58,643 nt of DNA from a virus (lineage: Duplodnaviria > Caudoviricetes), in IMG/VR virus record IMGVR_UViG_3300036798_000432, positions 1 to 58,643 of that record. One strand, 5' to 3'. Position 1 is the stretch's first letter; every line of letters starts with the position of its first letter. The notes below the pieces were generated by a model, which was not told the DNA's origin, did no database searches, and was given only the letters and a program-made list of their open reading frames with translations. This document shows, piece after piece, positions 37,222-56,647 of the stretch. The position numbers and the translations under genes are program-made.

Positions 37222-37581
37222 ATGTCAGAACGCATCAAATTGCCGCCGCGACGACCGATCGTCACGGCCCGGTTGGCTGATCCGCTGACCGGGCACTGGC
37301 ACCTGACCACGGGTTTTGGCCTGGATGGAAAGGTGCGCGAGATCTTTCTCGACCATGCTGGCCATGCCGGCGAGCCCTTCGACGCGCTGATTCATGATGC
37401 CTGCATCATCTTTAGCCGCGACGCATTGCAGCGCGGCTGTACCGCCGCGGAGCTCGCCCGCAATCTCAGTGAACGGCCACCGTCGCTGTTTGCCCAGGCG
37501 TTTACGGTCGCCGCGGCTCTCGAGGCCGATTTTGGACCGAAACTTCTACACGGAGGAAGTGATGCAGCTTGCGACAGTTAA
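37222..37581 (+). CDS. Stand-alone TSCPD (NrdJ C-terminal-like) domain protein
   Basis: RIKLPPRR...TTGF..DGKVREIFL...S..ALQRG...EL...L. Confidence 0.7.
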   Translation: MSERIKLPPRRPIVTARLADPLTGHWHLTTGFGLDGKVREIFLDHAGHAGEPFDALIHDACIIFSRDALQRGCTAAELARNLSERPPSLFAQAFTVAAALEADFGPKLLHGGSDAACDS

Positions 37582-38152
37582 GTTTTACGGTGACGAGATC
37601 CTGGCGATGCGCGACGACATCGGCAGGCCCGTTGTTCCGATGAGGCCCATCTGTAAAAATCTCGGTCTTAGTTGGGGGAGCCAATACAATCGGATCAATC
37701 GCGACGATTTTTTATCGACCTGCGTCGTCAAAATGAAGGCGCAGATCGATGGTCAGTCTCGGGTAATTGTCTGTTTGCTGTTCGAGGCGCTCGCTCTTTG
37801 GCTTGTGACGGTCTCTAGCGGCAGTGTCAAAGAGGAGCTGCGGCCTCAGCTCAAGCTCTACAAAGCCGAAGTTGCGACGGTGCTGGCCAGACACTTTCAC
37901 TTAGTGCCCCCGGACGAACCAACGCAGCTGCAGCGTCGGCTGACCATCGGCGATGATTTGGCCCGTGTTGCCGCGATCCTCGCGGTTGTGCGCGAGGCGC
38001 GGATGACCATCGGGCGCACGGTCGCGATCCAAATCTGGCGCCAGCATCTCGAACTGCCAACCTCGCCGGCTTTTGAGCAGATGATGCGCGTAATGGGGAA
38101 TGTTGGTCCGCTTTTCGACCTACCAGCCGAGGAGGAGGACATCCATGGCTAG
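37562..38152 (+). CDS. Antirepressor with P22_AR_N domain
   Basis: VKFYGDEI...PVVPMRPICKNLGLSWGSQYNRI..D. GGAGG SD. Confidence 0.85.
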   Translation: MQLATVKFYGDEILAMRDDIGRPVVPMRPICKNLGLSWGSQYNRINRDDFLSTCVVKMKAQIDGQSRVIVCLLFEALALWLVTVSSGSVKEELRPQLKLYKAEVATVLARHFHLVPPDEPTQLQRRLTIGDDLARVAAILAVVREARMTIGRTVAIQIWRQHLELPTSPAFEQMMRVMGNVGPLFDLPAEEEDIHG

Positions 38153-38849: not shown

Positions 38850-39049
38850 AACGACGCGGGAACGAACGGCAGGATAAAGCGCTCGCCCTGCGCCAGGCCG
38901 GGCTCGATTTCTCCTCGATCGCGGCAAAGATCGAACGCCTCGACGGGGATGGCTGCATTTCCGTGAGGATGGCGCAAACCCTGGTCCGCAAGGCGTCGGA
39001 TCGTGCTCGCCTCCCGCCGAGCTCAAGGAGGGAGGAAAACCCGCTATGA
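38846..39049 (+). CDS. Small HTH protein
   Basis: ALALRQAGLDFSSIA...ISVRMA. Confidence 0.6.
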   Translation: MKRRGNERQDKALALRQAGLDFSSIAAKIERLDGDGCISVRMAQTLVRKASDRARLPPSSRREENPL

Positions 39050-40182
39050 AGGGCGAGGCCTCCGAGCTCGCGCGCCATCTCGGCGAGCGGATCGATGCAT
39101 TGGTGCGCGATTTGCTGCCTCGAGGCAGGCGGAACGGCATTTGGTGGCGGGTCGGCTCGCTTGCCGGCGAAGAGGGTCAGTCGCTCGCCGTCACCCTCTC
39201 CGGGCATCGCCGCGGCCGCTGGACCGATTGGGAGGCCGACCAGGGCGGCGATGCGCTCGACCTGGTCGCGCAGATCGAGTGCAACGGCGACAAGATCGCG
39301 GCGATGGACTGGGCCCGTGATTGGCTCGGGCTCCCGGCCTTTGATCCGAGCAAACCGCTGGCCGAACGCAAACCACGGCGGCCGGTGCCGACGGCGACCG
39401 ATGGCCGGGCCGAGGCCGAGCGGCTGCTTAAACGCAACCGCAATCGTGCGTCGGAGATCTTCCTCAGCGCCAACCCGGTCGAGCGCGATGATCAGGTGTG
39501 GCGTTATTTCGCCGGCCGCTCGATTGATCTTGGCCGGCTGCCGCAGCTGCCGCGCGCGCTGCGGTGTCATCCCAAGCTGTGGAACGAGGAGTCGCAACGC
39601 GCCTGGCCGGCGCTGGTGGCGATGATCACCGATGTCGAGGGGCGCAACTGCGCGGTGCATCGCACCTGGCTCGAGGAGCGCAATCTCGCGTTTGAAGATG
39701 CGCCGATGGTCGGCAAGGCGCCGCTCGAGAATCCAAAGCTAAGCCTCGGCTCGTTTCGTGGTGGCTACATCCGGCTGTGGCGCGGTGCCGAGGGGCGCAG
39801 CTGGAAGTCATTGCGCCCGGGCGAGCCGCTACTGATCGGCGAAGGACTCGAGGACGTGCTGAGCTATCTGCAGTTCGATCCCGAGCCACGCGCCGCGTGT
39901 GCAGTGTCGCTCAGTTTTATGGCGGCGATGGAATTGCCGCCGGAATTCACCGAGATCCGCATTCTGGCCCAGCGCGATCCTCGGCTGACACCAAAAGGTC
40001 AGAAGATCACCGACGGGCGCACCGTGCATCTCTCACCGGCGCGCAAGCTATTGACGCGGGTGATCAGGCGATTTGAGGGCGAAGGCCGTAAAGTAAAACT
40101 CTGGACACCGCCAGTTTTCGCCAAAGACATCAACGAGTACGTGCAACTAATAGCTCGGGAGGGGGTTGTGTATGAGCGATGA
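39046..40182 (+). CDS. DNA primase (Toprim, P4-alpha-like primase region)
   Basis: GSLAGEEGQSL, GGDALDLV, PALVA, AVHRTWL, LLIGEGLEDVLS, KDINE. Confidence 0.85.
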   Translation: MKGEASELARHLGERIDALVRDLLPRGRRNGIWWRVGSLAGEEGQSLAVTLSGHRRGRWTDWEADQGGDALDLVAQIECNGDKIAAMDWARDWLGLPAFDPSKPLAERKPRRPVPTATDGRAEAERLLKRNRNRASEIFLSANPVERDDQVWRYFAGRSIDLGRLPQLPRALRCHPKLWNEESQRAWPALVAMITDVEGRNCAVHRTWLEERNLAFEDAPMVGKAPLENPKLSLGSFRGGYIRLWRGAEGRSWKSLRPGEPLLIGEGLEDVLSYLQFDPEPRAACAVSLSFMAAMELPPEFTEIRILAQRDPRLTPKGQKITDGRTVHLSPARKLLTRVIRRFEGEGRKVKLWTPPVFAKDINEYVQLIAREGVVYER

Positions 40183-41626
40183 GCATGCGGCTGTCAGCGA
40201 TCCCAAGATTGTTGATTTCGGCAAGTTTCGCGAGGAGTTCGGAGGCGGCGGTCGAGGTGGCGGCGGGGGGCCGCCCGGTGGTGGTGCGCCGAGTGAGCCG
40301 GAGTCATCAGCGGTTTTTGCCAGCGAGGACGCGATGGGGCTACAACTTGTCGATGAGCTCGGCGAGGATTGGCACTACGTCGAAAAGTGGGATGATTGGA
40401 TTACTTGGAACGGCAGCTATTGGGAGCGGGATCAAAAATGCCAAGTATTCGATCGGGCGCGCATTGTATGTCGAGGCACCGCCGGTCCGATCGACACAAG
40501 AGCGGGCGCGCTGAGGCGCTTTATCAGCTCGCGTCGTGTCACGTGGAGTGTCGAGCAATTTGCTCGCAAAGATCCGAGGATGATCATGACCCCTGAGGTT
40601 TTTGATGGCGATCCGTTTTTGCTCAACACGCCGGCCGGGATCGTCGACCTCAACACCGGTCAGCTCTATGGGCATGACCGCGACAAGTGGATGACGGAGC
40701 TCGCCGGTGCCGGCCCGGAGGGCGAGTGTCCGACCTGGATGCGGTTTTTGCACGAGATCACTGGCGGCGATGTCGTCTATCAGCAATATCTGCAGCGCCT
40801 CATCGGCTACAGCCTGACCGGCTCGTGCGAGGAGGAGATATTCGCATTTTGCTACGGCCCGCCGAATACCGGAAAATCGAAGTTCGTCGAGACCATCCGG
40901 TTGTTGCACGGGACCTATGGAACAAGCGCTCCAATGTCCAGCTTCGTCGCGACCACCGCAGAGAGACATCCGACTGATCTTGCTGGTTTTGTTGGCAAAC
41001 GGCTGGTGACAGCGGCTGAAACCGACGAGGGTCGACGGTGGGATCAGCAGCGGATTACCAACCTGACCGGACGGGATCAGATCAAGGCCCGATTTATGCG
41101 CGGTGACTTTTTCTCGTACTATCCGCAATTTCTTCTGATCTTTCATGGCAATTGCCGTCCTAGGCTTGGTGGTGTTGATATGGCGATGCGACGACGCTTG
41201 CACCTGTTGCCGTTCACAAATAAACCAAAGCAAATTGACGCTCATCTAATTGACAAATTCAAACTGGAACTGGGCGGCATCATGGTCTGGGCAGTGCATG
41301 GTGCAGTGTTGTGGCGAAAACACGGGCTGCAGCCTCCGCCAATTGTTCTGCAAGCAACAAAAGACTATTTCGACCGCGAAAGCTTGATCGAGAGCTGGCT
41401 CGACGATCGCTGTGCGCGCGACCCGAATGCGAAGACCGAGTTGAGCACGCTTTATGCCGATTATGCCGCGTGGGCTAAGAAGGCCAACGAGTACATCCTG
41501 CCGCAGCGGCGTTTTACCGACGCTCTCGAAAACCTCGGTTTTAACCGTGATCGTGATTGGCGGACGCGACATGTGCAAGTTGTTGGCTTGGCAATTACCG
41601 ACAGCAATGGGGAGTTGGGGCTGTGA
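40172..41626 (+). CDS. D5/P4-family SF3 helicase
   Basis: D5-N (W..WNG..W, LNTPAGIVDL.TG); Walker A YGPPNTGKS; GKRLVTAAE; LTGRD.IKARFM; AMRRRL. Confidence 0.95.
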   Translation: MSDEHAAVSDPKIVDFGKFREEFGGGGRGGGGGPPGGGAPSEPESSAVFASEDAMGLQLVDELGEDWHYVEKWDDWITWNGSYWERDQKCQVFDRARIVCRGTAGPIDTRAGALRRFISSRRVTWSVEQFARKDPRMIMTPEVFDGDPFLLNTPAGIVDLNTGQLYGHDRDKWMTELAGAGPEGECPTWMRFLHEITGGDVVYQQYLQRLIGYSLTGSCEEEIFAFCYGPPNTGKSKFVETIRLLHGTYGTSAPMSSFVATTAERHPTDLAGFVGKRLVTAAETDEGRRWDQQRITNLTGRDQIKARFMRGDFFSYYPQFLLIFHGNCRPRLGGVDMAMRRRLHLLPFTNKPKQIDAHLIDKFKLELGGIMVWAVHGAVLWRKHGLQPPPIVLQATKDYFDRESLIESWLDDRCARDPNAKTELSTLYADYAAWAKKANEYILPQRRFTDALENLGFNRDRDWRTRHVQVVGLAITDSNGELGL

Positions 41627-44918: not shown

Positions 44919-45023
44919 TCGGGCCGACCTTCATCTATCGCGGCATCGAGGGTCTCGATTATGACGAGAAATGCGTCGGTTCAACCGACGTATTTCGCGG
45001 AATGATTGATGGAGCTTAGAGGC

Positions 45024-45365
45024 ATGACCGACCGCCCGGGGATGCGCCTGTTGACCTGGCGCAAGATCGGCAAGGGCAAGGTGATCGGAGTCGCCAGCAT
45101 CGAGCTCCCGAACGGGTTTCGGGTCCACGAGATCATGGTGTTTCGCGGGAAGGACGGCCCCTATGCGATGCTGCCGTCGCGGCCGCAGCTCAATCGCGAC
45201 AGGCGGCCCGTCGTCGACCAGGCCGGCAAGGTGATCTACACGACGCTGAACGAGTGGAAATCGGCCGCGCTGGGCAAGGCGTGGAGCGCCAAGCTGATCG
45301 AGCTCTGCCGGGCGGCGCACAGCGATGATTTCTATGATCCCGAGACCGGGGAGTTTGATGCGTAA
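45024..45365 (+). CDS. SpoVG-like / ssDNA-binding protein
   Basis: GVASIEL.NG.RVHEI.V...KDG.YAMLPS; acidic aromatic tail YDPETGEF. Confidence 0.65.
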   Translation: MTDRPGMRLLTWRKIGKGKVIGVASIELPNGFRVHEIMVFRGKDGPYAMLPSRPQLNRDRRPVVDQAGKVIYTTLNEWKSAALGKAWSAKLIELCRAAHSDDFYDPETGEFDA

Positions 45366-46437: not shown

Positions 46438-46771
46438 GACCTGGGTGTGGATCGCGCAGTGCCTCTGTCCGCGGCGCCATTGCATTTGTGCTGGGGTCGA
46501 TGAGGCGGCCGACGAGCTCGACGCCGAGATCAAGATCGCGGCGCCCCTGCGAGAGGAGCTTTCAAGACTGATCGAGAGCGGGGGCGTCAACCCGTGGTGC
46601 GGGATCTGCCACGCGCCGCGCGAGACCTGGCATTTCGAGCTCGGAAGATCGCGCTGGACGACTCTCGCCGAGGCGGCGCCGGAGATCCATAAAATCGCTG
46701 CCGAACAGGCGGCGACGGGCGCGGTATTTGGCGAATTATTGGGTGCCAAAACCCGCGGGCGGATGCACTAA
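46427..46771 (+). CDS. Small Zn-binding hypothetical protein
   Basis: QCLCPRRHC...NPWCGIC. Confidence 0.7.
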   Translation: MPGETWVWIAQCLCPRRHCICAGVDEAADELDAEIKIAAPLREELSRLIESGGVNPWCGICHAPRETWHFELGRSRWTTLAEAAPEIHKIAAEQAATGAVFGELLGAKTRGRMH

Positions 46772-46938
46772 CCCGTGGTTTCGTCGCTGGGCGGCGGCGG
46801 GGTATTGCAGTTCGGGCAGGCGATCCAGATCAGTTTTCGTGGTGCTTCGGGGGTGTCGCCGGGGACCAGGCGGGGCACCATCCCGGCCTCGCCACCGTAA
46901 GGTGAGCATTCGGGACAGCCGGCGGGTTTGGGGATCAT
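46768..46938 (-). CDS. 56-aa zinc-ribbon protein (absent from the ORF track)
   Basis: My translation: MIPKPAGCPECSPYGG...WIACPNCN. CACGGAG SD. Confidence 0.6.
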   Translation of the reverse strand: MIPKPAGCPECSPYGGEAGMVPRLVPGDTPEAPRKLIWIACPNCNTPPPPSDETTG

Positions 46939-46954
46939 AGAACTCCGTGAAACG

Positions 46955-46985
46955 AAAAAGGGCGCCGCTTTCCAGGGCGGCGCCC
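46955..46985 (-). terminator. Terminator-like hairpin with CCUGGAAA loop downstream of sciP
   Basis: GGGCGCCGC-CCTGGAAA-GCGGCGCCC-TTTTT on the minus strand. Confidence 0.7.
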
Positions 46986-47011
46986 TTTAGTTGCAGAGAA
47001 CTCTTTATCGG

Positions 47012-47293
47012 CTATCCGACGATGAGCCGCAAGGGTCGTGCCCGGCGGCGGGTATCGACGAGCGAGGCCTTCAGACCACCCTTGCCGTGCCGCTCGACGG
47101 CGACCTGCCACTCGCTGAGCTCGGCCTGGGTGATCTCGTAACGGCGATAGGCTTCCTCGGCGGTCAATTCGTTGAGGCGGAAGGCCTCGACGACGGCCAG
47201 CTTTTTGCCGGGTGTCCACCGCTTCACCGGTGGTGCGGGCAGCTGCACCGGCAGAAAACGTGGTTGGGTCATGGTGATCTCCTTGGGTTTCAA
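47012..47293 (-). CDS. sciP: SciP (DUF1153) CtrA-inhibitor homologue
   Basis: LP.PPVKRWTPGKKLAVV.A.....LT.EEAYRRYEIT..EL.EW...V.RHG..GL, the DUF1153 signature. AAGGA SD. Confidence 0.85.
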   Translation of the reverse strand: MKPKEITMTQPRFLPVQLPAPPVKRWTPGKKLAVVEAFRLNELTAEEAYRRYEITQAELSEWQVAVERHGKGGLKASLVDTRRRARPLRLIVG

Positions 47294-47529
47294 CGGTAGT
47301 ATCGCGGCGGCGGCGGGGTGGTGATCAGACCACCGACCGCGCCGACGGCACCGCCGACCGCCGCACCCATCGCCGCACCTGGTCCGCCGCCAGCCGCGGC
47401 GCCGATGGCCGCTCCGCTGCCTGCGCCGATCAGACCGCCCCCAATCGTCCGCTGCACCGGGTCGTAGGGGTTCGTACAGCCGACGAGCGCGCCGCTCATC
47501 ACAAGAACAACCAGCAAAATCCGTGTCAT
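47290..47529 (-). CDS. Glycine-zipper lipoprotein
   Basis: Lipobox LVGC; GGGLIGAGSGAAIGAAAGG...GAAVGGAVGAVGG. Confidence 0.85.
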   Translation of the reverse strand: MTRILLVVLVMSGALVGCTNPYDPVQRTIGGGLIGAGSGAAIGAAAGGGPGAAMGAAVGGAVGAVGGLITTPPPPRYYR

Positions 47530-47555
47530 TCCTTCCTCCAAAAAGGGTCTAGAAT

Positions 47556-47831
47556 TTACGTCTCGTTTCCCGACGAGGGTTCTCCGTGGCCCCAATCGCC
47601 GGGGGCGGGCACGCCGCCCGTGTGTTCCAGCACAGCGGGCGGCACCTCGCCGCCCGTGGCACGACAGCGCGCCATGAACATCTCGACCTTGGCCGGGGGG
47701 ATCACGGCGCCATCGCCGGCAAACGCGCGTAGCTGTGCCACCCGCTGGCGGCACAGCTCGTCCGGGGTAGAGCAGGCCGCGAGCAGCATTACTGCTGCTC
47801 CGGCGAGCGTGCGGGCTAATCGCGCCGACAT
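47556..47831 (-). CDS. Putative lipoprotein
   Basis: Lipobox LAAC. Confidence 0.65.
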   Translation of the reverse strand: MSARLARTLAGAAVMLLAACSTPDELCRQRVAQLRAFAGDGAVIPPAKVEMFMARCRATGGEVPPAVLEHTGGVPAPGDWGHGEPSSGNET

Positions 47832-48112
47832 TGCTCTTCCTGTTCTTGACGAATACGGCTCAGGCGCTCTTCGAGCTCCTCACGGGCGTTGTATCGAGCC
47901 CGATCGATTGCCCGTTCCAGCCGGTGCTCGGCGTAGCGCAGCTGCTCGCAATGTTGCCAGTGATCGCGGCCGCGGCCGCCCTGGACGGGCTGCGGGATGG
48001 CGATGCCGGGGGCGATAGTGACGCCAGGGACGGGTATCTGGACATATTGCGCCGCGGCCGGGAGGGCTGCGGTGGCGAGTAGAACGGCGGCGGTCAGTGC
48101 AGTTTTTAACAT
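47816..48112 (-). CDS. Small secreted protein
   Basis: Signal peptide ending AAA-Q; CACGGAG SD; paired Cys. Confidence 0.75.
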   Translation of the reverse strand: MLKTALTAAVLLATAALPAAAQYVQIPVPGVTIAPGIAIPQPVQGGRGRDHWQHCEQLRYAEHRLERAIDRARYNAREELEERLSRIRQEQEEQCRRD

Positions 48113-48129
48113 TTCTAATCTCCGTGGTT

Positions 48130-48318
48130 TCAGGGACGGGGGGTGCGACGGCGGTCACCGAGGTGACGGCGGATAAACGCCGCCTCCTTCGCGGGATCGA
48201 GGACCTCGCGAAGATCGCGATCGGCCGGCAATTGGGCGGCGCGCTCGAAGACCACCTCGAGGTGCTCGAGCGCCCGCCGAAGGCGGCCGATGGGTGTCAG
48301 ATCGTCTTGGTTCTTCAT
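48130..48318 (-). CDS. Hypothetical protein
   Basis: ATGA-coupled to the ctrA-like gene. Confidence 0.55.
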   Translation of the reverse strand: MKNQDDLTPIGRLRRALEHLEVVFERAAQLPADRDLREVLDPAKEAAFIRRHLGDRRRTPRP

Positions 48319-48653
48319 TGCCGCAGAACGTAACCGCGGCCCCAGACGGTCTGGATCAGCTGGTCGGCCGAGGGCAGCGTGCCGGCGAATTTGCTGCGGA
48401 TCTTGCAGACAAAGACGTCGATGATCTTCTGGTCGGGCTCGGTCGTCGACGGATAGAGGTGGTCGAGGATCTGGCTCTTCGAGACGATAGTCCCGGCGTG
48501 CAGGGCCAGGCACTCGACGATCGCATATTCCTTCTTGGTCAGACGCACCGGGTGTCCGGCGAGCTCGACCGTGGTCGCCACGCAGTCGATGCGCAGCGGG
48601 CCGACCTGGTGCCGTGCGCAGACCGGGTTTAGTTCGGTAGACGGATCTGGCAT
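48315..48653 (-). CDS. ctrA: CtrA-like OmpR winged-helix DNA-binding domain without a receiver domain
   Basis: LTKKEY...L.L..GT...K...L.HLY....EP..KIIDVFVCKIR.K...I.TVWGRGYVLR closely follows the CtrA C-terminus (KIIDVFICKLRKK, TVWGRGYVLR). AGGAG SD at a short N-terminus. Confidence 0.85.
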   Translation of the reverse strand: MPDPSTELNPVCARHQVGPLRIDCVATTVELAGHPVRLTKKEYAIVECLALHAGTIVSKSQILDHLYPSTTEPDQKIIDVFVCKIRSKFAGTLPSADQLIQTVWGRGYVLRQ

Positions 48654-48857
48654 ATGATGGTTCTCCTGGTTCTAGTAGTGCCCAACACAACGAACCGGAA
48701 GGACGCCGCTCCCTCTGCATTGATGGATCCGGGGACGGGCTCAAACCGTCGCCGGTGACAGATCGATGGGGACGGTCCGGGGAAGGCCGGTCACTCGGCC
48801 TGAGACCCTCGGCCCTCGCGAGTGTCCGCGGGGGGCGGCGTCGATCGGTACGCCGTA

Positions 48858-48886
48858 CATATACGTCTAATACCGTACAGAGACAA
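48858..48886 (-). promoter_or_regulatory. Promoter TTGTCT-N17-TATATG with TACGG-N6-ACGTA operator
   Basis: Upstream of the ctrA-like to sciP operon. The operator resembles the one at 50605-50620. Confidence 0.6.
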
Positions 48887-48899
48887 GGGGGAAATTAAG

Positions 48900-49106
48900 C
48901 TAGAATTCGATGATCAAACCTGTGGGGGCACGCAATATGATCTTGAGATCCCGGCGCTCCCGGCGGGCGTGGCGGGCGCAGGCCGTGAGCTCGTCGCGGT
49001 CGAGGCTCTTGGCCTGAAAGACCAGGCGAATGATGCTGTCGACCTCGCGGGTGATCGTCAGGTGCCAGGCTGGGCGGCGGCTGCCGCCGGTCGCGTCGAT
49101 GATCAT
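48900..49106 (-). CDS. Small hypothetical protein, paralogue of 26638..26805
   Basis: RLVFQAK..D..EL...AR.....IILRAPTG. Confidence 0.6.
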   Translation of the reverse strand: MIIDATGGSRRPAWHLTITREVDSIIRLVFQAKSLDRDELTACARHARRERRDLKIILRAPTGLIIEF

Positions 49107-50335
49107 GGGGTCGCTCCTTCCAGCGGCATGTCGATCGGGAATGGCAAGGCTTCGCACAGCGTTTGGTCTTCCGGGCGCATGCGGTTTGACTTGGCCGAAT
49201 TGTCGCGCGCCGGCAAATATTGCAAATTCCAAGGAACGTGCAGGCCGCTGATCGGGTAGCCTTCTGTTGTTATTGCGTGGGATTTTCGACCGCCCAATGG
49301 CACGATGTGGTCAACCTGTTTTCCGGCCGGGCAATCAGCAAAGATGCGTCTCAAGGCCGCAAGATTAACCCAAGGGGGCGCGCGATAGCTGGCGCGGTAT
49401 ATACTATTTCTAAGTTTTCGGCCCACCGGGTGGACCGTGGACCAGTCTTTGGACTGACGGTTTGTTTTGATTATTTGCTCTTCTGATTGATTGTTGCGCG
49501 TGTTCTGTTTGCTGAGTTGCACACAACCAAGACAGGCGTTGTCGGATACTCGGCGCTCGGTGATGTGGCCGTATTTGCAGGGTTCTCCCGTAAAAAAACG
49601 CTTCAGGCCGGCAGCGTGGGCGTCGACGCGGAGCCTCGCATTTTGCATAAGCCGCGGGCCGGGCGGCTTTGGCGGTTTAGGCGGTTTGGCTTGCCAGTGA
49701 TTGATTTGAGCGGCCGCGCATGCTAGGCACTCGCCATCCGACGTGAGCCGTTTAGACTTATGTCCGTTTGCGCAAGGTAGGCCTGTGGAATAATATTCCA
49801 GCCCAGCCGCGCGAGCCCTTTCGCGTGCGCCGATGCGCTGCGGCGGATGCGTCTTCTGGTAGTCGGCGCCACACCCGGCGCACCCGCTATTCGACGTGTA
49901 ACGCTGGGTATGTCCTTGCGGACAAGGCGAGCCGGTGAAGTATGGCAGCCCGGCGGCACGGGCCTCCTCACGAGCGCGTTGGTTTAGCGTCGGCCCCTTT
50001 GGCGGCGATTTGGGTCGGGCTGCGTTTCGGGTCTCCCAACAAGCAATACAGCCCCCTGTCGACACCCAGCGATCGGCGATGTGGCCGTGTTTGCAGGGCT
50101 TGCCCGTGAAGTAGCGCTGGAGCTCGAGGGCGCGGGCCGCCTGACGAATGGGCTGACTTAACGCCCACCCCGTTGGCGGGTGTTTGGGTTTCGAGCAGGC
50201 GACGCACCACTTTGTGGATACATAACGATCGGCGATGTGGCCGTGTTTGCAGGGCTGACCGGTGAAATAGTGTCGGAGCTTGCGGGCTTTGGCCTCGGCG
50301 CGGGTGATTATTTCGGGAAGGATAGTTTCGGGCAT
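49103..50335 (-). CDS. HNH endonuclease with five tandem Cys/His zinc-binding repeats
   Basis: (Y/F)-x-TG-x-PC-x-x-GH...R-x-x-S...CxxC five times. C-terminal VDHIVPL...GLHVPWNLQYL...N..KSN. Confidence 0.9.
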   Translation of the reverse strand: MPETILPEIITRAEAKARKLRHYFTGQPCKHGHIADRYVSTKWCVACSKPKHPPTGWALSQPIRQAARALELQRYFTGKPCKHGHIADRWVSTGGCIACWETRNAARPKSPPKGPTLNQRAREEARAAGLPYFTGSPCPQGHTQRYTSNSGCAGCGADYQKTHPPQRIGARERARAAGLEYYSTGLPCANGHKSKRLTSDGECLACAAAQINHWQAKPPKPPKPPGPRLMQNARLRVDAHAAGLKRFFTGEPCKYGHITERRVSDNACLGCVQLSKQNTRNNQSEEQIIKTNRQSKDWSTVHPVGRKLRNSIYRASYRAPPWVNLAALRRIFADCPAGKQVDHIVPLGGRKSHAITTEGYPISGLHVPWNLQYLPARDNSAKSNRMRPEDQTLCEALPFPIDMPLEGATP

Positions 50336-50369
50336 AGCGCCGCAAATATGCGGCGGTTGCCGTACGGCT

Positions 50370-50594
50370 TCAAGGGCTGTGGCGGCGGCTTCGTCTGACC
50401 GCCGAGCGGATCGTACGGCCTTCCTTGCGCTCGTCGGATGCGATCAGGTCGAGGGCGAAATTGATCAGGTAGACGATCGCGGCGGTGCGCGAGGGGGCGA
50501 CCTGCTGCTCTTGACACCAGCCGTCGACCCGCTCGACGAGCTCCGGGGGGACGCGGAGCTCGAGACGGGCGGTGGCTTGGGGGGTGCGCGGCAT
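50370..50594 (-). CDS. Ribbon-helix-helix regulator, probably leaderless
   Basis: RLELRVPPELVERVDGW.......SRTAAI.YLI. Confidence 0.8.
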   Translation of the reverse strand: MPRTPQATARLELRVPPELVERVDGWCQEQQVAPSRTAAIVYLINFALDLIASDERKEGRTIRSAVRRSRRHSP

Positions 50595-50600
50595 CCCGTC

Positions 50601-50628
50601 ATTGTACGGAAAATGCCGTATAGGTCAA
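50601..50628 (-). promoter_or_regulatory. Promoter TTGACC-N16-TACAAT with TACGG-N6-CCGTA palindrome
   Basis: The -10 box ends 6 nt before ATG 50594 and there is no SD. Confidence 0.65.
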
Positions 50629-50831
50629 TGGATTGTCACGCAGCGGTAGTGAACGGCGACGGGTAACCCGGTGACCACCAGCGCGCGGTTGTCCTCGCGT
50701 TGAAACTGCCGGGCGAGTGGGCTGCAGTCGGTCCAGCCGTGATGGTAGCTCAGCGGTTTGCAGCCGGACTGGGTGCGGGTCGCGTAGCACTGCAGAAGGG
50801 CTACCAGGAGCAGCGGCACCAGGCTTTTCAT
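50625..50831 (-). CDS. Small secreted Cys-containing protein
   Basis: Signal-like MKSLVPLLLVALL. Confidence 0.5.
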   Translation of the reverse strand: MKSLVPLLLVALLQCYATRTQSGCKPLSYHHGWTDCSPLARQFQREDNRALVVTGLPVAVHYRCVTIH

Positions 50832-50865
50832 GGCTTCCGTCGCTGGAAATCGGCGGTGGTTTCCA

Positions 50866-51198
50866 TCAGGTCTTTCCCGCCGGTTCTTCCGCCAATTGTG
50901 GCGAGAGCAGAGGCTTGAGCAGTTGTTCCAGCGCCGCGACGTGTTCGGGACACAGCAAGCCGTCGCGATACCACCGGGTGCCTGGTCCAAAATCGAGGAC
51001 AAGCGTCGGGGTGCGCTGCCAGAAGACGTGAAGGTAGACCCAGCCCCGAGGCAGGGCGGTGCCGTTGGCGCAAGCGGTGGCCACGCAGTTGCCCCAGGCG
51101 CAGGCGGTGGGTAAAGCGGCATATTGGCTCGATGACATCTCGACCTCGCCGATCAAGTGGAAGGTCGGTGCCTTGCTGCGGCGTTGGTGACGGTTCAC
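50866..51198 (-). CDS. Zn-binding hypothetical protein with N-terminal NRHQRR motif
   Basis: GGAGG SD; CAWGNC, LPRGW, LCPEH. Confidence 0.7.
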   Translation of the reverse strand: MNRHQRRSKAPTFHLIGEVEMSSSQYAALPTACAWGNCVATACANGTALPRGWVYLHVFWQRTPTLVLDFGPGTRWYRDGLLCPEHVAALEQLLKPLLSPQLAEEPAGKT

Positions 51199-51283
51199 TG
51201 ATATTCCTCCGCGTGTTGCGTTAAGCGCCGGAACAATATGACAGAAACCCGTGCTTCGGGCAAGTGTACGGGAGGGGATTTTT

Positions 51284-51622
51284 GTGCCGCCACGTTGGAC
51301 AAAGGAGAACGACGCTTATGTCGACCGCCGCACCGCCGAGGGAGCGAATTACACGACGATTGCCGGGGAGCTCGGGCCCGAGATCACCGCCGCGGCGATC
51401 GCCGGCCGGATGCGGCGACGAATACTGGCCGCCGACGGCCGCGAGCCGATCAGTGCCGCCGTGCTCGATGAGCGTCTCACAACCGAGGGATGTCGCTGGG
51501 TCATTGGCGACCCCGGTCGCGGTGGTGACTGGCGTTGGTGCGGGGCAAAAATTATCGATGGCAGCTGGTGTGCGGAGCACGCCGCGATTGGGCGAATGCG
51601 AGGGGGAAGCAAACTACTATGA
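51284..51622 (+). CDS. gcrA: GcrA-family cell-cycle regulator (compact)
   Basis: N-terminal WT.E.......EG..Y..IA.ELG..IT..AIAG...R. C-terminal CRWVIGDP....WCG....WCAEH. GGAGG SD. Confidence 0.8.
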   Translation: MPPRWTKENDAYVDRRTAEGANYTTIAGELGPEITAAAIAGRMRRRILAADGREPISAAVLDERLTTEGCRWVIGDPGRGGDWRWCGAKIIDGSWCAEHAAIGRMRGGSKLL

Positions 51623-52191
51623 GACAGCAACGGGACAAGCGGCGGGTCGGGGGAGAGGAAGCGCGGATTGCACCACCGCCGGAGCGGTTTCGGGCAGATC
51701 ACGTCTCGGGTGCTCTGGTGGTGCGTTGCGAAGAGCCGGTGGCCGATGCCAATGGCGGAGTTGGCCGGCCGTGGAAGGCGCTCGACACACTGGCCAGGAT
51801 GGAGCGCGCCGGCTCGATCTCGCGTGGCATGCGAGCGGCCGGGGTCCTCTTTAACGAGTATTTTAACGATGCCGGCTTAGACCCGCTGTGGGCCGCCGAC
51901 CCAACGCGGATTCCGGTATTGACGATGAGCGGCAAGCCTTGGTCGATCGGTCGCCGCGGCTCGACCTCGGCGCTGGAGGCGGTGATCGATGCGTTGGTGA
52001 TGCTGGGTGGGATTTCGTCGCCCGGCGGGTCGTGTGCCTGGCATGTTCTGGGGTGCGAAATGACAATCGAACGCTGGGCAATCTCGCGATCGTGGTGCGG
52101 TCACCCGGTGCACCGCAAGGTGGCGGCCGGCATCCTGTTGACGGATCTCGGAATTTTGGAAAATTACTTTGGGCTGAGCAAAGACGCTTGA
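51619..52191 (+). CDS. Putative late transcription regulator (DUF6456-like)
   Basis: D.LARM...G.IS.....AG..F...F..AGL...AL..LGG..SP.GS.AWHV.G. Last gene before terL. Confidence 0.55.
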   Translation: MRQQRDKRRVGGEEARIAPPPERFRADHVSGALVVRCEEPVADANGGVGRPWKALDTLARMERAGSISRGMRAAGVLFNEYFNDAGLDPLWAADPTRIPVLTMSGKPWSIGRRGSTSALEAVIDALVMLGGISSPGGSCAWHVLGCEMTIERWAISRSWCGHPVHRKVAAGILLTDLGILENYFGLSKDA

Positions 52192-52275
52192 CAGGGTGGG
52201 GTCCCCCAGAAAAAGTTTTTGCCCGACGGGTGGGGATGCGACTCCACCCTAGACCAAACCCAGAACATCGGAAAA

Positions 52276-54483
52276 ATGATGCCGAGCTACGAGCCGCAGG
52301 GCGCGCAGCTGCGTGCCTTTTCCGCCTCCAATGCGTTTTTGCGGGCCCTGATCGGGCCGATCTACGGCGGCCGCAAAAGCTGCTGCATCAACGATATCGT
52401 TCGACGGGCGACAATCCGGCGGTGGGCGAAGCAAACCCGCTGGCGGTGGGTCGTAGTGGCGCCGATTCGCCGCGAGCTCGAGCGATTTGTGATCCCAACG
52501 ATCAAGAATTGGCTGGAAGTCGGCGAATACGACGACAAAGGGCGGCATTTCGCCCTGCATTACCGCCTCGAGGACGGGGTCCAGCGTCTGATCGAGATCG
52601 ATTTCCTCGGTATGGACGATGCGCAGGACCGAAAACGCTTCGCTGTGGCCACGGCGACGGGTGTCTGGCTCGATGATGCCCGAAATTTGAGCGAAAGCGT
52701 CCTCGAAGACGCGATGCGCATCGCCGGCACGTACCCGACACCGCTCGCCGGTGGGGCGATGTGGTCGGGGGTGATCTGCTCGTCGCGGATGCCGCCGCCT
52801 GGTCATTGGCTGGTGCGCAGGCCAGAGGACCCGGGCGATTTACAGCTGTTTCGTCAGCCTGGCGGGCGGACCGCGGAGGCCGAGAACCTGCCGGCGCTGC
52901 AGGCCAGGGGCTTCAGCTACGAGGCGTTTGCCAGCGAGCGCGACGCCGACTGGATCAGGGTCAATATCGACGGCGAGCTCGGGCAAACCGCGACCGAGGC
53001 GGCGGCCGAGGCCGAACGAGCCGCTGCCCGCCAGCAATTGACCCGTTGGGTCGGGCTGACGATGCCCGATTTGACGCCGGCACGGCATCACGAGCTGCTG
53101 ATTGCCAAGCTCGAGGCCCTGGCGCGGCGCGAAATCAAGCGTTTGATGTTCTTTTTGCCGCCTGGATCGGCCAAAAGCACCTATGGCAGCGTGCTTTTCC
53201 CCTCCTGGTACATCGGCAACCACCCGACGCACTCGGTAATCGCCGCCTCGCACTCCAAGGAGCTCGCCGAGCGGTTTGGCCGCCGGGTCCGCAACATCGT
53301 CGGTTCACCAATCTTTCGGGAAACGTTCGGGTTTGGCCTGAGCGGCGATTCGGGTGCCGCCGGGCGCTGGGAAACCGCCCGCGGGGGCGAATATTTTGCC
53401 GTCGGCGTCGACGCCTCGGTCACCGGCCGGCGCGCCCATCTCGGTATCATCGATGATCCGGTCAAAGGCCGCGCCGAGGCCGACAGTGCGACGATCCGGC
53501 AGCACGTTTGGGAGTGGTACAAGGCCGATTTCTGGACCCGGCTCGTGCCCGAGGCGACGATGCTCTACATCGGCACCCGGTGGCACGAGGATGATCTCGC
53601 CGGGCGCCTGCTCGAGGACGCCAAGGTCGGCGGCGAGCAATGGGAAGTGGTCAGTCTGCCGGCGATCGTCGAGGAGGAGGGGGATGCGCTGGGCCGGATC
53701 ATCGGCGAGCGGCTCTGGCCCGAGTGGTACACCCCGGAGATGCTGGAGGTCGCCCAGCGCGACACGCGGAACTGGTCGGCACTCTGGCAGCAGCGGCCAA
53801 TGCCGGAATCGGGCGACTATTTCCAGAATGACTGGGTGCGCTGGTATGACAGCGCCCCGCCGCGTGACCGGCTGCGCACCTATGGCGCCTCGGATTACGC
53901 GGTGAAGGCCAATGCCGGCGACTGGACGGTGCACCTGGTCGCCGGGATCGACCCCAACGATGATCTCTATCTCCTAGATCTGTGGCGCAAACAAACCGCC
54001 TCGAACGAATGGGTCGAGTCGGTTATCGATCTGATGGATCTGTGGAAAACCATCACCTGGGCCGAGGAGGCCGGGCAGATCGAGAAGGGGGTCGGGCCGT
54101 TTCTGACCAAGCGTCAGCTCGAGCGCAAGATCTACGCGGTCAGAAAGCAATACAGCTCGGCCGCGGACAAGGCGGTGCGAGCCCAGGCGATCCGCGGCCG
54201 GGTGGCGATGGGCAAGGTGTACTTGCCCAAGCGCGCGCCCTGGGCGCCGGTGCTGCTCGACGAAATGCTGCGCTTTCCGGCTGGGAAAGCAGATGACCAG
54301 GTCGACGGCCTGGCCCTTTTGGGCCGGATGCTCGACGAGATGGTGCCGGGGAGCAAACCCAAGCCGGCGGCCGAGGAGCCGCGCGGGGTTTCCGGCATGA
54401 CGCTCGACGAGCTGTGGAAGCTCGATAAGCGATATTTCAAAAATGGCCGGTTTGTCGGGGATGGTCGGCCGCTGAGGATCTGA
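52276..54483 (+). CDS. terL: Terminase large subunit with an extra, degenerate N-terminal TerL ATPase domain
   Basis: Intact unit: PPGSAKST, IIDDP, GTRWH, nuclease ASDYA / AEEA / DDQVD. Extra unit: GPIYGGRKS, GVWLDD, G.YP...GG..WSG, FRQPGG....AENL. Confidence 0.9.
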   Translation: MMPSYEPQGAQLRAFSASNAFLRALIGPIYGGRKSCCINDIVRRATIRRWAKQTRWRWVVVAPIRRELERFVIPTIKNWLEVGEYDDKGRHFALHYRLEDGVQRLIEIDFLGMDDAQDRKRFAVATATGVWLDDARNLSESVLEDAMRIAGTYPTPLAGGAMWSGVICSSRMPPPGHWLVRRPEDPGDLQLFRQPGGRTAEAENLPALQARGFSYEAFASERDADWIRVNIDGELGQTATEAAAEAERAAARQQLTRWVGLTMPDLTPARHHELLIAKLEALARREIKRLMFFLPPGSAKSTYGSVLFPSWYIGNHPTHSVIAASHSKELAERFGRRVRNIVGSPIFRETFGFGLSGDSGAAGRWETARGGEYFAVGVDASVTGRRAHLGIIDDPVKGRAEADSATIRQHVWEWYKADFWTRLVPEATMLYIGTRWHEDDLAGRLLEDAKVGGEQWEVVSLPAIVEEEGDALGRIIGERLWPEWYTPEMLEVAQRDTRNWSALWQQRPMPESGDYFQNDWVRWYDSAPPRDRLRTYGASDYAVKANAGDWTVHLVAGIDPNDDLYLLDLWRKQTASNEWVESVIDLMDLWKTITWAEEAGQIEKGVGPFLTKRQLERKIYAVRKQYSSAADKAVRAQAIRGRVAMGKVYLPKRAPWAPVLLDEMLRFPAGKADDQVDGLALLGRMLDEMVPGSKPKPAAEEPRGVSGMTLDELWKLDKRYFKNGRFVGDGRPLRI

Positions 54484-54904: not shown

Positions 54905-56647
54905 ATGGCCGATTTAGCGGTTGCCTCGACAGTTGTCGGCACGATCGAAGAGCGCAAGGACCTCGGCACCGAGCCGAATGCGATCTGGCGCTTCTGGAAC
55001 TCGCAGCTGAAGCTCGCCGAGCGAACTGATGAGGACTGGATCAAGCGGGGGCGCCAGGCAGTCGACCGGTACCGCGACGAGCGCGACCAGAACGAGGCGC
55101 GGGCCAGCAAATACAACGTCTTGTGGTCAAATGTGGAGACCCTCAAGCCGGTGCTCTACGGGCGGACGCCAGAACCGGACGTCGCCCGCCGGCACAAGGA
55201 TCAGCATGACGCAGTGGCCTCGCTGGGCGCCCAGATCCTCGAAACCGCGCTGGATTACGAGAACGATATCGAAGAATTCGACGCGGTGATGCAGCAAGTC
55301 GTCGAAGATCGGTTATTGCCCGGCCGTGGTGTCGCCAGAGTGTTCTACGAGCCGGAATTTGGCGAGGAAGAGGAAGACCAAGACGCCGAGCCCGATGAAG
55401 AGGGTAATCAGCCGACATTTCAGTCGGTGACCAATGAGAGAGCGCCGGTGCGCTATGTATTCTGGGAAGATTACCGAGAAACACCGGCCAGAACGGAAGG
55501 CGAGATCTGGTGGAAGGCCTACCGGGTATTTATGACCCGCGACGAGCTCGTCGAGCGGTTTGGCAGTGAAATCGGCAAAAAGGTGACCCTCGATTACACC
55601 CCGTCGGGGGTGCATGCGGTGGCCAGCGAGGCGCAATGGGGCCCGCTGGCGGACATGTTCAAAAAGGCGACCGTCTGGGAGATTTGGGACCGCAAACGCA
55701 AGGAAGCGGTGTGGATCGCCAAGGCCTGGTCGGACGCGCCGCTCGACAGCCAGGACGACCCTTTGGAATTGCCGGATTTTTTCCCGTCGCCGCCGGCTTT
55801 GCGGGCGACCACGACCAATGAGCAGCGGGTCTCGGTCAACGATTATGTTGAATATCAAGACCAGGCGATGGAGCTCGACACATTGACCGCGCGGATCGAC
55901 CGCCTGACCCGGGCGCTCAAGGTCTCGGGTGTCTATGCGGGCTCGGAGAAGATGACCCTGCAGCAGCTGGTCGACGATTCGAGCGAGAACAAATTGATCC
56001 CGGTCGAGGATTGGACCGGGTTTGCCGGCGACAAGGGCGGGCTCAACGGGTTGATCCAGTGGCTGCCGGTCGAGCAGATCGCTCGCGTCCTGATCCAGCT
56101 CTATGACGCCCGCGAGCGCACCCTGCGGATCATCTACCAGACGACCGGCATCGCCGACATTCTGCGCGGCGAAACCAATCCGATCGAGACGCTGGGCGCG
56201 CAGCAGCTGAAGACCCAGTTTGCGACCCGGCGCATCACCCGGGCGCAAAAGGACGTCGCCCGCTTCGCCCGCGATCTGCTGCGGCTCAAAGGGGCGGTGA
56301 TGGCGCGGCATTTTATGCCCGAGACGCTCTCGCGGATGTCCGGGCTTCCCGAACCGCTCCCGGCACTGCCGCCACCCCCGCCGATGATGATCCCGGCGCC
56401 GTCTCCTGCGGCGGCCGGTTCGGCGCTAGGCGGCCCGGCGCTACCCTCGTCGGCTCCCGTCCCGGGAGCGGTACCAGCAAGGCCCCCGGGCATGGCCCCG
56501 GGCCTTCCGCCGGGTGCTGGTGGTGCACCTGGCATCCGGCCACCCCTGGCACCGGCGGCGCCGGTGCCAGGGGCACGGCTCGCGCCCGATGGCCGCCATT
56601 ATGTGCCGGACCCGCGGCGCCCCGGCAAATACCTGATGGTGGCTTAA
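54905..56647 (+). CDS. Portal protein, N-terminal fragment (split portal, part 1)
   Basis: YNVLWSNVETLKP.LY...P.PDV.RR, DRLLPGRGVARV, VWEIWD, DPLEL..FFP.P, IYQ.TGIADILRG, ETLGAQQLK. Then Pro-rich tail and stop, lacking the IDIEADST region. Confidence 0.9.
   Translation: MADLAVASTVVGTIEERKDLGTEPNAIWRFWNSQLKLAERTDEDWIKRGRQAVDRYRDERDQNEARASKYNVLWSNVETLKPVLYGRTPEPDVARRHKDQHDAVASLGAQILETALDYENDIEEFDAVMQQVVEDRLLPGRGVARVFYEPEFGEEEEDQDAEPDEEGNQPTFQSVTNERAPVRYVFWEDYRETPARTEGEIWWKAYRVFMTRDELVERFGSEIGKKVTLDYTPSGVHAVASEAQWGPLADMFKKATVWEIWDRKRKEAVWIAKAWSDAPLDSQDDPLELPDFFPSPPALRATTTNEQRVSVNDYVEYQDQAMELDTLTARIDRLTRALKVSGVYAGSEKMTLQQLVDDSSENKLIPVEDWTGFAGDKGGLNGLIQWLPVEQIARVLIQLYDARERTLRIIYQTTGIADILRGETNPIETLGAQQLKTQFATRRITRAQKDVARFARDLLRLKGAVMARHFMPETLSRMSGLPEPLPALPPPPPMMIPAPSPAAAGSALGGPALPSSAPVPGAVPARPPGMAPGLPPGAGGAPGIRPPLAPAAPVPGARLAPDGRHYVPDPRRPGKYLMVA

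Follow-up and report, generated by a model that had tools for sequence, protein, structure and literature searches.

The viral record IMGVR_UViG_3300036798_000432 (58,643 bp; this whole stretch is called the window below) is a linear, near-complete phage genome (CheckV, 98%) with a G+C content of about 65%. It encodes divergent members of three protein families that published accounts, as far as they were available, describe as cell-cycle regulators in Caulobacter: a CtrA-type DNA-binding domain (DBD) without a receiver, a SciP-like DUF1153 protein and a compact GcrA-like protein. The reading that we prefer, and to which we give a probability of roughly 45%, assigns these proteins to two separate roles. 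The GcrA-like protein would be a core, methylation-independent activator, and the CtrA domain and the SciP-like protein would be accessory cargo that resets the CtrA regulon of the host, which under the same estimate is a high-GC, GANTC-avoiding alphaproteobacterium of soil. An earlier reading of the window, made from its letters without database searches (the sequence-only reading), had proposed that a phage carries these three regulators. Scans with PHROG and Pfam profiles confirmed the phage origin of the record by identifying the large terminase subunit (TerL), portal, major head protein, tail and ejection proteins and a primase-helicase. The same arrangement of the regulator genes was found again in the IMG/VR sister of the window, a contig assembled independently in a different study and sample, and, in the sister form, on a 5,622-bp contig in run X4. 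The public runs that hold the stretch are soil-metagenome DNA, and no RNA run was listed.

Three regulator-family proteins in one phage genome

The CtrA-type open reading frame (ORF) matched Pfam Trans_reg_C at 74.7 bits (cut-off, 26.2) over profile positions 1-77 of 77. No Pfam Response_reg match was obtained in this ORF, in which just about 15 residues precede the DBD, and the window protein lacks the receiver domain with its phospho-accepting aspartate (D51), a feature of CtrA. Among the NCBIfam models, CtrA scored best (106 bits over model positions 128-223 of 224), followed by RpaB (61 bits) and others below 50 bits; the equivalog cut-off of 350 bits for CtrA was not reached, partly since only half of the model can match. 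Identity of the window DBD to 42 cellular CtrA DBDs was 47-55% (median 49%); to 28 other OmpR-family DBDs, which were taken from one Sphingomonas and one Bradyrhizobium genome, it was 22-38% (median 28%), and the two ranges did not overlap. The CtrA-type domain without receiver that the sequence-only reading had described at 48315-48653 was thus recovered, and, by identity, the grouping with generic OmpR-family proteins that it had set against this was not found. Because cellular CtrA DBDs are at least 60% identical to one another, the window DBD is a diverged derivative. The best 80 cellular CtrA matches were all 47-55% identical and were spread across many orders, which rules out a recent capture.

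The recognition helix KIIDVF[IV]CK[LI]R was retained in the window DBD. The motif GTTLTK of cellular CtrA reads GTIVSK, which places isoleucine at T168 and serine at T170; in Caulobacter these two residues tune promoter-class choice and make no DNA contact, according to the available part of a preprint (bioRxiv 10.1101/739516). The window protein terminates directly after GYVLRQ, whereas cellular CtrAs extend further. In Caulobacter CtrA, the ClpXP degradation signals lie in the C-terminal tail and the receiver. Many short contigs of other organisms aligned at 85% identity or more with 47 bases of the recognition-helix region (48395-48441) in all four soil runs and diverged on both sides, so that the core of this helix is highly conserved among ctrA genes, at the nucleotide level too.

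In a large tree of 132 rows (61 viral rows, 30 paralog rows and rows for 40 of 80 cellular CtrA loci; the eight rows L138, L156-L161 and L165, with fewer than 80 amino acids [aa] each, were left out), the 28 paralogs formed a clade with a Shimodaira-Hasegawa-like approximate likelihood-ratio test (SH-aLRT) support of 97. The window and its sister (99) fell outside this clade, nearest to Acetobacteraceae-type CtrA, and also outside a viral-only clade of 38 receiver-less domains that includes those of RDJLPhi1 and RDJLPhi2 (95 SH-aLRT). The window pair sits on a long branch at the junction of CtrA and its paralogs and the trees agreed in part only; the CtrA assignment is carried by the hidden Markov model scores and the identities, not by the tree. 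Exact CtrA boxes (TTAA-N7-TTAA) were absent from the phage genome, and sites with one mismatch occurred at chance level (2, with 1.74 expected); TTAACCAT was found once, with 0.3 expected. Since the genome has no exact site, the targets of the CtrA domain probably lie outside the phage.

The SciP-like gene lies on the same strand. Its maximal ORF spans 47012-47293 and opens with TTG, and the SciP homologue that had been proposed for this ORF was borne out; its likely start was corrected to the ATG at 47272, which has AAGGAG 6 nucleotides (nt) upstream. The corresponding gene call of the sister is 85 aa long. The protein scored 59.5 bits with Pfam DUF1153 (cut-off, 23.5) and 57.3 bits with NCBIfam SciP, below the equivalog cut-off of 100, and it matched the PDB entry 2jrt with an expectation value (E) of 4.5e-9. 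It shares with SciP (nuclear magnetic resonance structures 2jrt and 2oa4) the small helix-turn-helix (HTH) fold family and the core LP..(K/R)RW...K..VV, RY, W, G, and all eight invariant columns of a 33-row alignment were kept (L18, P19, R25, W26, K31, Y52, W62 and G70). In contrast to its cellular relatives, it lacks their conserved N-terminal stretch VIGPDG.PL, is encoded at the end of an accessory phage operon, and is only 27-44% identical to 30 cellular SciP-family members. By these comparisons, the phage protein is a true but divergent DUF1153 member, and its family membership suggests a SciP-type function. Two arginines of Caulobacter SciP, R35 and R40, which we take to be needed for CtrA binding, would correspond to arginine and lysine in the phage protein. 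A complex prediction for the CtrA DBD and the DUF1153 protein with two alignments scored 0.00 against a mark of 0.32 and carries no weight either way.

Among cellular genomes, DUF1153 was single-copy at 117-140 bits in four of five named genomes and absent from the fifth, Sabulicella. In a class-wide sample it was present in 31 of 81 genomes, mostly as one copy of 94-145 bits, with a few divergent copies of 50-77 bits. None of 61 sampled genomes from the family of Sabulicella glaciei (G006, G158-G216) had DUF1153 over the Pfam cut-off, and the CtrA of this family is among the cellular rows nearest to the window DBD. A search of 50,697 isolate phage records with the SciP-like protein gave nothing at E <= 0.01. 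A scan of viral contigs with an alignment of canonical SciP found two loci; it required two exact peptide patterns and was not exhaustive.

The GcrA-like gene starts with GTG and has GGAGG 8 nt upstream. Its product scored 38.8 bits with Pfam GcrA (cut-off, 26.9) through its C-terminal part only, and 30.1 bits with NCBIfam GcrA, for which the equivalog cut-off is 280. Pfam GcrA was matched by all five homologues of the phage group, in the relatives at profile positions 2-48, and a profile built from the five homologues matched both domains of Caulobacter GcrA 7ye1_G (13.5 and 27.2 bits). These matches sustain the compact GcrA that the sequence-only reading had placed at 51284-51622. The two-domain plan, with a putative N-terminal HTH, and the aromatic interface with sigma70 region 2 are shared with Caulobacter GcrA (7ye1, 5yix and 5yiu). 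The zinc ligands are kept, with C81, C97, C107 and H110 aligned to C118, C133, C143 and H146 (C-X15-C-X9-C-X2-H in the window; C-X14-C-X9-C-X2-H in Caulobacter crescentus). At the sigma70-contact positions, W83, G92, W94, W96 and W106 align with W120, G129, F130, F132 and Y142; five of six essential interface positions are unchanged or aromatic, and the other, Y151, is not kept (R115).

The residues that read GANTC and its N6-methyl group in Caulobacter GcrA, R33, N34 and I37, are replaced by alanine (A47, A48 and A51), and only G38 is kept, as G52; the roles of these residues and of the sigma70 contacts are those given in the available part of Wu et al. 2018 (PMC5887438). The alignment of the five phages reads T-[AS]-[AS]-A-[IV]-A-G-R at this site, and H41 is arginine in the window protein. 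Whereas Caulobacter GcrA has 173 aa, a 62-aa linker and a basic tail, the window protein has 112 aa and a linker of about 18 aa; the C-terminal basic patch is missing, and the protein ends 9 residues past the last aligned position. The sigma70-docking half is conserved in sequence and the methyl-DNA-reading half is not. With alanine at all three reader positions and so short a linker, the sigma70-dependent action at methylated GANTC that the sequence-only reading had given for GcrA is probably not applicable to this protein.

GANTC itself is scarce in the window: 45 sites were counted and 259 +/- 14 were expected, which is about a six-fold depletion (z = -15). Among the 16 XYNY'X' words it showed the strongest depletion (ratio 0.17; next lowest, 0.61), no four-base palindrome in the window fell below a ratio of 0.57, and the four relatives were likewise depleted of GANTC (ratios 0.13-0.24). 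No GANTC site was present within 46665-51908, and no N6/N4 methyltransferase was found in the window. The depletion fits a host with CcrM or one with a HinfI-type restriction system. Because of the three alanines, the lack of sites in 46665-51908 and the genome-wide depletion, the GcrA-like protein probably does not read GANTC.

When 1.84 billion representative proteins, a library without genomic context, were searched with a profile, 2,690 GcrA-like relatives were obtained at E <= 0.001. Compact one-stretch proteins of 135 aa or less accounted for 28 of the best 150 of these 2,690, and such proteins are a recurrent type. A tblastn search with the window protein against the 50,697 phage records gave no match at E <= 0.01. 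Just before the GcrA start (51238-51290), the reading frame of the window is offset by one base from that of the sister; the sister ORF runs in frame to an upstream ATG, and the ATG at this place in the window opens another frame. The conserved domain and the ribosome-binding site are unaffected by the difference.

The assignment to CtrA, SciP and GcrA therefore stands at the level of the families, and all three proteins remain below the NCBI equivalog cut-offs. They are, by these comparisons, divergent derivatives and not captured host copies.

Distribution among related and unrelated viruses

All three ORFs are intact in the sister contig, with amino-acid identities of 90% (CtrA domain), 83% (DUF1153) and 90% (GcrA). 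The ratio of non-synonymous to synonymous substitution rates (dN/dS) between window and sister was 0.05 for the terminase, 0.24 for the CtrA domain and 0.33 for the GcrA-like gene, the last two from small counts. Four related viral contigs were found, with terminases 82-98% identical to that of the window. GcrA was present in all four, always near the terminase; DUF1153 was present in two and Trans_reg_C in one. Neither DUF1153 nor the CtrA domain was found in two near-complete relatives (99% and 94%). In this phage group, GcrA is core, and the CtrA domain and DUF1153 are accessory. Since a tyrosine integrase and a small serine recombinase are both encoded by three of the four relatives, and the classification of two as proviruses agrees with this, the lineage is temperate.

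To place the trio among viruses in general, IMG/VR was scanned with the CtrA-domain alignment. The scan returned 69 contigs, in which the receiver was present in 17 and absent in 52 (Pfam, maximal ORFs). GcrA co-occurred with the CtrA-like domain in 24 of 68 non-sister records at E <= 0.001, and in 12 of 68 when the Pfam cut-off was applied; DUF1153 did so in 1 of 68. Of the 70 IMG/VR records in which a CtrA-like domain was present, two had all three genes, namely the window and its sister. The sequence-only reading knew of no phage with this set, and the co-occurrence survey agrees that the trio is unusual. In five records (G109, G111, G112, G121 and the window), the CtrA-like and GcrA genes lie 2.4-4 kb apart.

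Several other records in this set deserve mention. In a separate lineage (L152-L155 and L164), whose records are mostly proviruses of 62-68 kb, the CtrA-like domain has no receiver and follows a long unrelated N-terminus; a GcrA (67-103 bits) is encoded as well, and the worked-out coordinates put the two genes 2.4-4 kb apart in four of its five records. Pairing of a CtrA domain with GcrA is therefore not unique to the group of the window. Two records with a full-length CtrA-like protein (G092 and G094) also have a high-scoring GcrA (101-126 bits). Some of the 17 full-length, receiver-bearing ORFs (among L133-L151 and L163) are in records classed as proviruses, where flanking host DNA is possible. 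Seven records of about 40 kb, mostly proviruses (L156-L161 and L165), have tiny ORFs of 64-81 aa that correspond to the C-terminal half of Trans_reg_C (recognition helix and wing) and are 54-58% identical to the window protein there. An unrelated 165,361-bp record with direct terminal repeats (L148, L211, L212, L248) encodes a receiver-less CtrA-like domain of 133 aa and, far apart from each other, two genes of the SciP family (120 and 89 bits), without GcrA; in no other viral record examined, apart from the window and its sister, were a CtrA domain and SciP found together.

Phage-encoded CtrA without a receiver, like phage-encoded GcrA, has been published before. Fogg 2019 (PMC6363796), in the part available, describes a CtrA of RDJLPhi1 that lacks the response-regulator N-terminus and lies between homologues of gene transfer agent (GTA) regulators. 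The window CtrA domain matched 76 of the 50,697 isolate phage records in a tblastn search; RDJLPhi1, RDJLPhi2, Paracoccus vB_PmaS-R3 and phages of Rhodobacter capsulatus such as RcWhiteOak likewise encode a CtrA-type DBD without a receiver, the CtrA proteins of such Rhodobacterales phages are 35-44% identical to that of the window, and the RDJL records are annotated as 'ctrA'. The window DBD is 23-38% identical to the RDJL-type viral clade, as against 47-55% to cellular CtrA, and looks like a separate, less diverged derivative. Its surroundings also differ: the neighbours in RDJLPhi1 are homologues of gafA and rcc01866, and those in the window are orf62, envelope proteins and the SciP-like gene.

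GcrA homologues are in print for five of six phiCbK-like phages, as the sequence-only reading had stated, and the phiCbK protein was proposed to alter the replicative state of the host (Gill 2012, PMC3556154, as far as the text was available). Both phiCbK gp222 and the window protein are phage-encoded members of Pfam GcrA (PF07750), but the window protein is far from the phiCbK proteins, which were not matched at E <= 0.01. The phiCbK-like phages are large lytic siphophages, whereas the window GcrA precedes the terminase in a 58-kb phage of temperate type. The 'lytic deferment' phages of Mascolo 2022 (PMC9437464) resemble the window phage as alphaproteobacterial phages tied to the CtrA regulon. 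They carry clustered sites for host CtrA and rely on it, whereas the window phage has no CtrA boxes and a CtrA-type domain of its own; the part of that paper available mentions phiCbK GcrA as the sole phage-borne regulator. In a roseobacter, mutations of the host CtrA phosphorelay gave phage resistance with lowered expression of motility genes (PMC13392355, in the part available). We found no published description of a phage-encoded SciP/DUF1153 gene or of a CtrA/SciP/GcrA trio. Within the searches run, three points are new: the SciP-family gene, the co-occurrence of all three regulators, and a core phage GcrA from which the methyl-reading residues have been lost.

Proposed roles and alternative explanations

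In the explanation that we prefer, three components of the CtrA/SciP/GcrA circuit of the host have signal-blind derivatives in the phage, placed in two contexts. The sequences establish which genes these are, how the operon is built, that it is conserved in the sister and how the genes are distributed among phages; binding, targets, timing and phenotype are inferred. By analogy with Caulobacter GcrA, the zinc finger of the GcrA-like protein probably docks on region 2 of host sigma70. Since its DNA-reading residues are changed and its linker is short, the protein would be a sigma70-tethered activator independent of GANTC methylation, and its targets would most likely be phage (late) promoters, perhaps with some host promoters. 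The CtrA domain and the SciP-like gene belong to a moron-like accessory operon with three envelope proteins. Having neither receiver nor C-terminal tail, the CtrA domain would not be switchable by the CckA-ChpT phosphorelay and would be without the parts used in degradation, and it would sit constitutively on host CtrA boxes. SciP represses CtrA-activated flagellar, pilus and chemotaxis promoters (PMC4083442, in the part available), and the SciP-like protein would damp promoters of these kinds. The net effect would most likely be a reset of the host CtrA regulon in lysogens or in early infection; a loss of receptors, and thus superinfection exclusion, in which the envelope proteins take part is the most coherent reading of the operon.

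Several observations weigh against this explanation. The N-terminal HTH of the GcrA-like protein is matched weakly, with 13.5 bits between the five-homologue profile and residues 2-46 of 7ye1_G and with E 0.052 for 5yiu_A. The phage SciP-like protein scored 57 bits, whereas cellular single-copy SciP scored 94-145 bits, and the dN/dS of DUF1153 against the sister was 0.50, which indicates weak constraint from small counts. In a tree of 55 rows, the window pair fell on the same side of a branch as the paralogs, with a support of 92.9, below the mark for good support. An isolated DBD without receiver-driven dimerisation may bind CtrA boxes weakly, and the presence of envelope proteins beside regulators is no proof of a shared function. 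No tyrosine integrase or resolvase was found in the window itself. A scan of species-representative genomes with TerL, aimed at the host, gave no relative. The same search of 301 genomes from the family of Sabulicella glaciei gave 140 matches, but all were 35-54% identical and covered the core domain only, so that no close prophages are indicated there.

An unlikely alternative is that all three proteins act in a concerted takeover of the host cell cycle and hold the cell in the state that is best for phage replication, with the CtrA domain silencing the origin and either driving or blocking division genes, the SciP-like protein shutting down CtrA-activated genes and the GcrA-like protein switching on S-phase genes. 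The sequence-only reading had drawn a similar conclusion, namely a lock on the cell-cycle state, a block of division or the removal of receptors. The roles of the three families in Caulobacter and the absence of CtrA boxes from the phage genome favour such a concerted action, and Gill et al. proposed a role of this kind for phiCbK GcrA, in the part of their paper available. The primase-helicase is encoded without a DNA polymerase, of which none was found in the PHROG scan of the window; the phage may need the host replisome, and an S-phase-like state would then be useful. Yet most of the linker, and the residues for reading GANTC and N6-methyladenine, are gone from the GcrA-like protein. The genes are not co-inherited among the four relatives, as the counts above show, and lie in two divergent units. 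In Caulobacter, moreover, GcrA is part of the S-phase programme but CtrA and SciP are part of that of G1/late S, so that the three would work against one another. The GcrA gene precedes the terminase genes in five of five phages of the group, and this fixed site points at least as much to phage gene control.

Control of the phage's own genes by all three proteins, without any intended action on the host, is quite unlikely. The GcrA-like protein would be a late activator, and the CtrA and SciP-like proteins would form a pair of activator and anti-activator that acts through a drifted motif, in a manner resembling the gafA-ctrA-rcc01866 module of RDJL-type roseophages and gene transfer agents. 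The receiver-less CtrA between GTA-regulator homologues in RDJLPhi1 (PMC6363796, in the part available) is a precedent. The frequency with which GcrA accompanies CtrA-like domains in other records (24 or 12 of 68, depending on the cut-off), the five records with short distances between the two genes, the divergent DBD with isoleucine and serine at the equivalents of T168/T170, and the 246 nt of conserved non-coding DNA before the CtrA gene can all be counted on its side. However, the recognition helix is close to that of cellular CtrA, and still no TTAA-N7-TTAA site is present in the phage. Close relatives of 94-99% completeness do without the CtrA domain and DUF1153, which would not be expected of essential regulators, and envelope proteins encoded in the same operon are a typical sign of accessory cargo. 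We also hold improbable a bolder reading, in which a portable, signal-blind CtrA/SciP/GcrA logic is the developmental switch of the phage. The compact, methylation-independent GcrA would then be a sigma70-tethered late activator, from a widely recurring class of phage-type regulators, and a constitutive CtrA domain with an imported SciP-like inhibitor would rewrite the motility and pilus programme of the host from the prophage, possibly in a host lineage without SciP.

It is distinctly improbable that the CtrA domain is mainly a decoy or competitor and not a transcription factor, which soaks up host proteins that bind the DBD or occupies CtrA boxes as an inert monomer and so reduces the CtrA output of the host; the SciP-like protein could then be its partner or an independent repressor. 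The domain has no receiver and so no surface for phosphorylation-dependent dimerisation, and it has isoleucine at T168, a residue that with T170 tunes promoter-class choice in Caulobacter (bioRxiv 10.1101/739516, in the part available). The resistance to phage that follows lowered output of the CtrA pathway in a roseobacter (PMC13392355, likewise in part) would suit a decoy. This idea largely overlaps the explanation that we prefer. Isolated OmpR-family DBDs, as known from the PhoB literature, often still bind DNA and activate, which counts against a decoy. That the genes are functionless passengers, recently captured from a host or joined to the phage in a chimeric assembly, is scarcely credible. 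For it speak the origin of the window from a metagenome assembly, the two relatives that are cut-out proviruses and the ctrA reads of other organisms that pile up at 48395-48441. Against it, the arrangement recurs in another sample and study, the ORFs are intact with dN/dS below 1, the best cellular identities of 55% (CtrA) and 44% (SciP family) rule out recent capture, and the genes have strong ribosome-binding sites and tight overlaps.

Phage copies of host master regulators show which nodes of the network are worth hijacking. Those of the window are stripped of their control input, as CtrA has lost receiver and tail and the GcrA-like protein its methyl-reading residues and much of its linker, and such natural minimal versions could be tools for separating DNA binding, sigma70 docking and signal input. 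The SciP-family gene is apparently the first from a phage, within the searches run, and the CtrA-domain and GcrA pairs in 12-24 of 68 other records suggest that regulatory modules of this sort form a broader class among phages of alphaproteobacteria that is as yet unstudied. If the preferred explanation is right and the operon switches off flagella or pili from a prophage, this would be superinfection exclusion at the level of regulators.

Operon neighbours and other features of the genome

The sequence-only reading had described a minus-strand unit headed by the CtrA gene. The tight unit that includes the SciP-like gene was found and ends in a terminator-like hairpin, but CtrA may not be its head: the gene for a ribbon-helix-helix-like (RHH) protein and a promoter-like site lie upstream, and the CtrA gene itself comes after 246 nt of conserved DNA that is non-coding. 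The features of the region and the phage genes named in the text are listed in Table 1.

Table 1. Features of the window, with strand and basis or remark
Position	Strand	Feature	Basis or remark
46988-46957	-	Terminator-like hairpin, 12 pairs (9 G-C), then T-run	End of operon
47012-47272	-	DUF1153/SciP-family HTH protein, 86 aa	Pfam, NCBIfam; end of operon
47290-47526	-	Glycine-zipper lipoprotein, lipobox LVGC	Pfam Gly-zipper_YMGG 31.4 bits; insertion relative to sister
47556-47831	-	Small lipoprotein, 91 aa, lipobox LLAAC	Conserved in sister; no family found
47816-48112	-	Small secreted protein, 98 aa, signal peptide	Frame kept in sister
48130-48318	-	orf62, orphan, 62 aa	ATG overlaps stop of CtrA-type gene (ATGA)
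48315-48653	-	Receiver-less CtrA-type winged-helix DBD, 112 aa	Pfam, NCBIfam, identities
48654-48900	-	Conserved non-coding stretch, 246 nt	Upstream of CtrA-type gene
49103-50335	-	HNH/endonuclease-VII-like protein, 410 aa	PHROG matches; insertion
50370-50594	-	RHH-like protein, 74 aa	Weak: Pfam RHH_5 E 0.029; homologue in relative G002
50628-50601	-	Sigma70-type promoter-like site TTGACC-16-TACAAT	Upstream of RHH gene
50866-51198	-	orf110	Divergent from GcrA gene; homologue in G002
51284-51622	+	Compact GcrA homologue, 112 aa	Putative HTH at N-terminus; linker of about 18 aa; CCCH zinc finger (sigma70-interacting domain) at C-terminus
51535-52191	+	Conserved ORF between GcrA and TerL	No family found; small terminase by position only
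52219-54483	+	TerL	Pfam/PHROG; opens packaging and structural block
54905-56647		Portal	PHROG/Pfam scans
6304-7335		Major head protein	PHROG/Pfam scans
37394-38152		P22-type antirepressor domain	PHROG/Pfam scans
39046-40182		Primase	PHROG/Pfam scans
40166-41626		D5-type helicase-primase	PHROG/Pfam scans

The CtrA-type gene has a strong AGGAG before its ATG. The next gene, orf62, is intact in the sister, with 0, 5 and 8 substitutions at the three codon positions and a dN/dS of 0.16; it had no Pfam or Atlas match, and its product could be a partner of the CtrA domain. The frame of the secreted-protein gene survives a 12-nt indel in the sister, with 6, 4 and 11 substitutions by codon position. 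The glycine-zipper gene is missing from the sister and from the run X4 contig, in which 47266 is joined to 47560. Two plus-strand ORFs suggested by G+C content at third codon positions were rejected, the one at 47831-48082 for a stop in the sister and the one at 48097-48333 for its substitutions of 8, 6 and 1 by codon position.

The non-coding stretch before the CtrA-type gene lies in a region that is 92% identical to the sister. Its part at 48704-48887 shares 78% identity with non-coding DNA that directly follows the DUF1153 gene of the relative G002 (L007 6902-7087). The stretch has an AT-rich part with repeated GTACGG words, and Rfam gave no match on 46700-51400; a promoter or operator here would be a guess. 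The HNH protein upstream has five tandem zinc-ribbon-like repeats of the form YFTGxPCxHGH...C..C. Its gene is absent from the sister and polymorphic in the population: in run X1, contigs with the gene (depth about 10.5) coexist with a joint without it (48889 to 50385, depth 5.2). The gene behaves like a homing-endonuclease insertion. The promoter-like site upstream of the RHH gene is weak evidence alone, as one such site was found and 0.9 were expected by chance. The GcrA gene is divergent from the minus-strand unit and is followed by the conserved ORF and TerL.

TerL has an N-terminal extension of about 255 aa without a terminase-profile match; terminase matches start at residues 257-310, and the matches of its relatives in cellular genomes are confined to residues of about 260-710. 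In other parts of the window, a tRNA-Glu (anticodon TTC) was found at 36160-36233 on the minus strand, in the early/regulatory region. Three further genes are cargo-like. They encode a retropepsin-type aspartyl protease domain (25496-26263, minus strand), a protein with a PEP-CTERM-like end that scored below the cut-off (28281-28976, plus strand) and a protein with a weak SpoVG-like match of 25 bits, also below the cut-off (45006-45365, plus strand).

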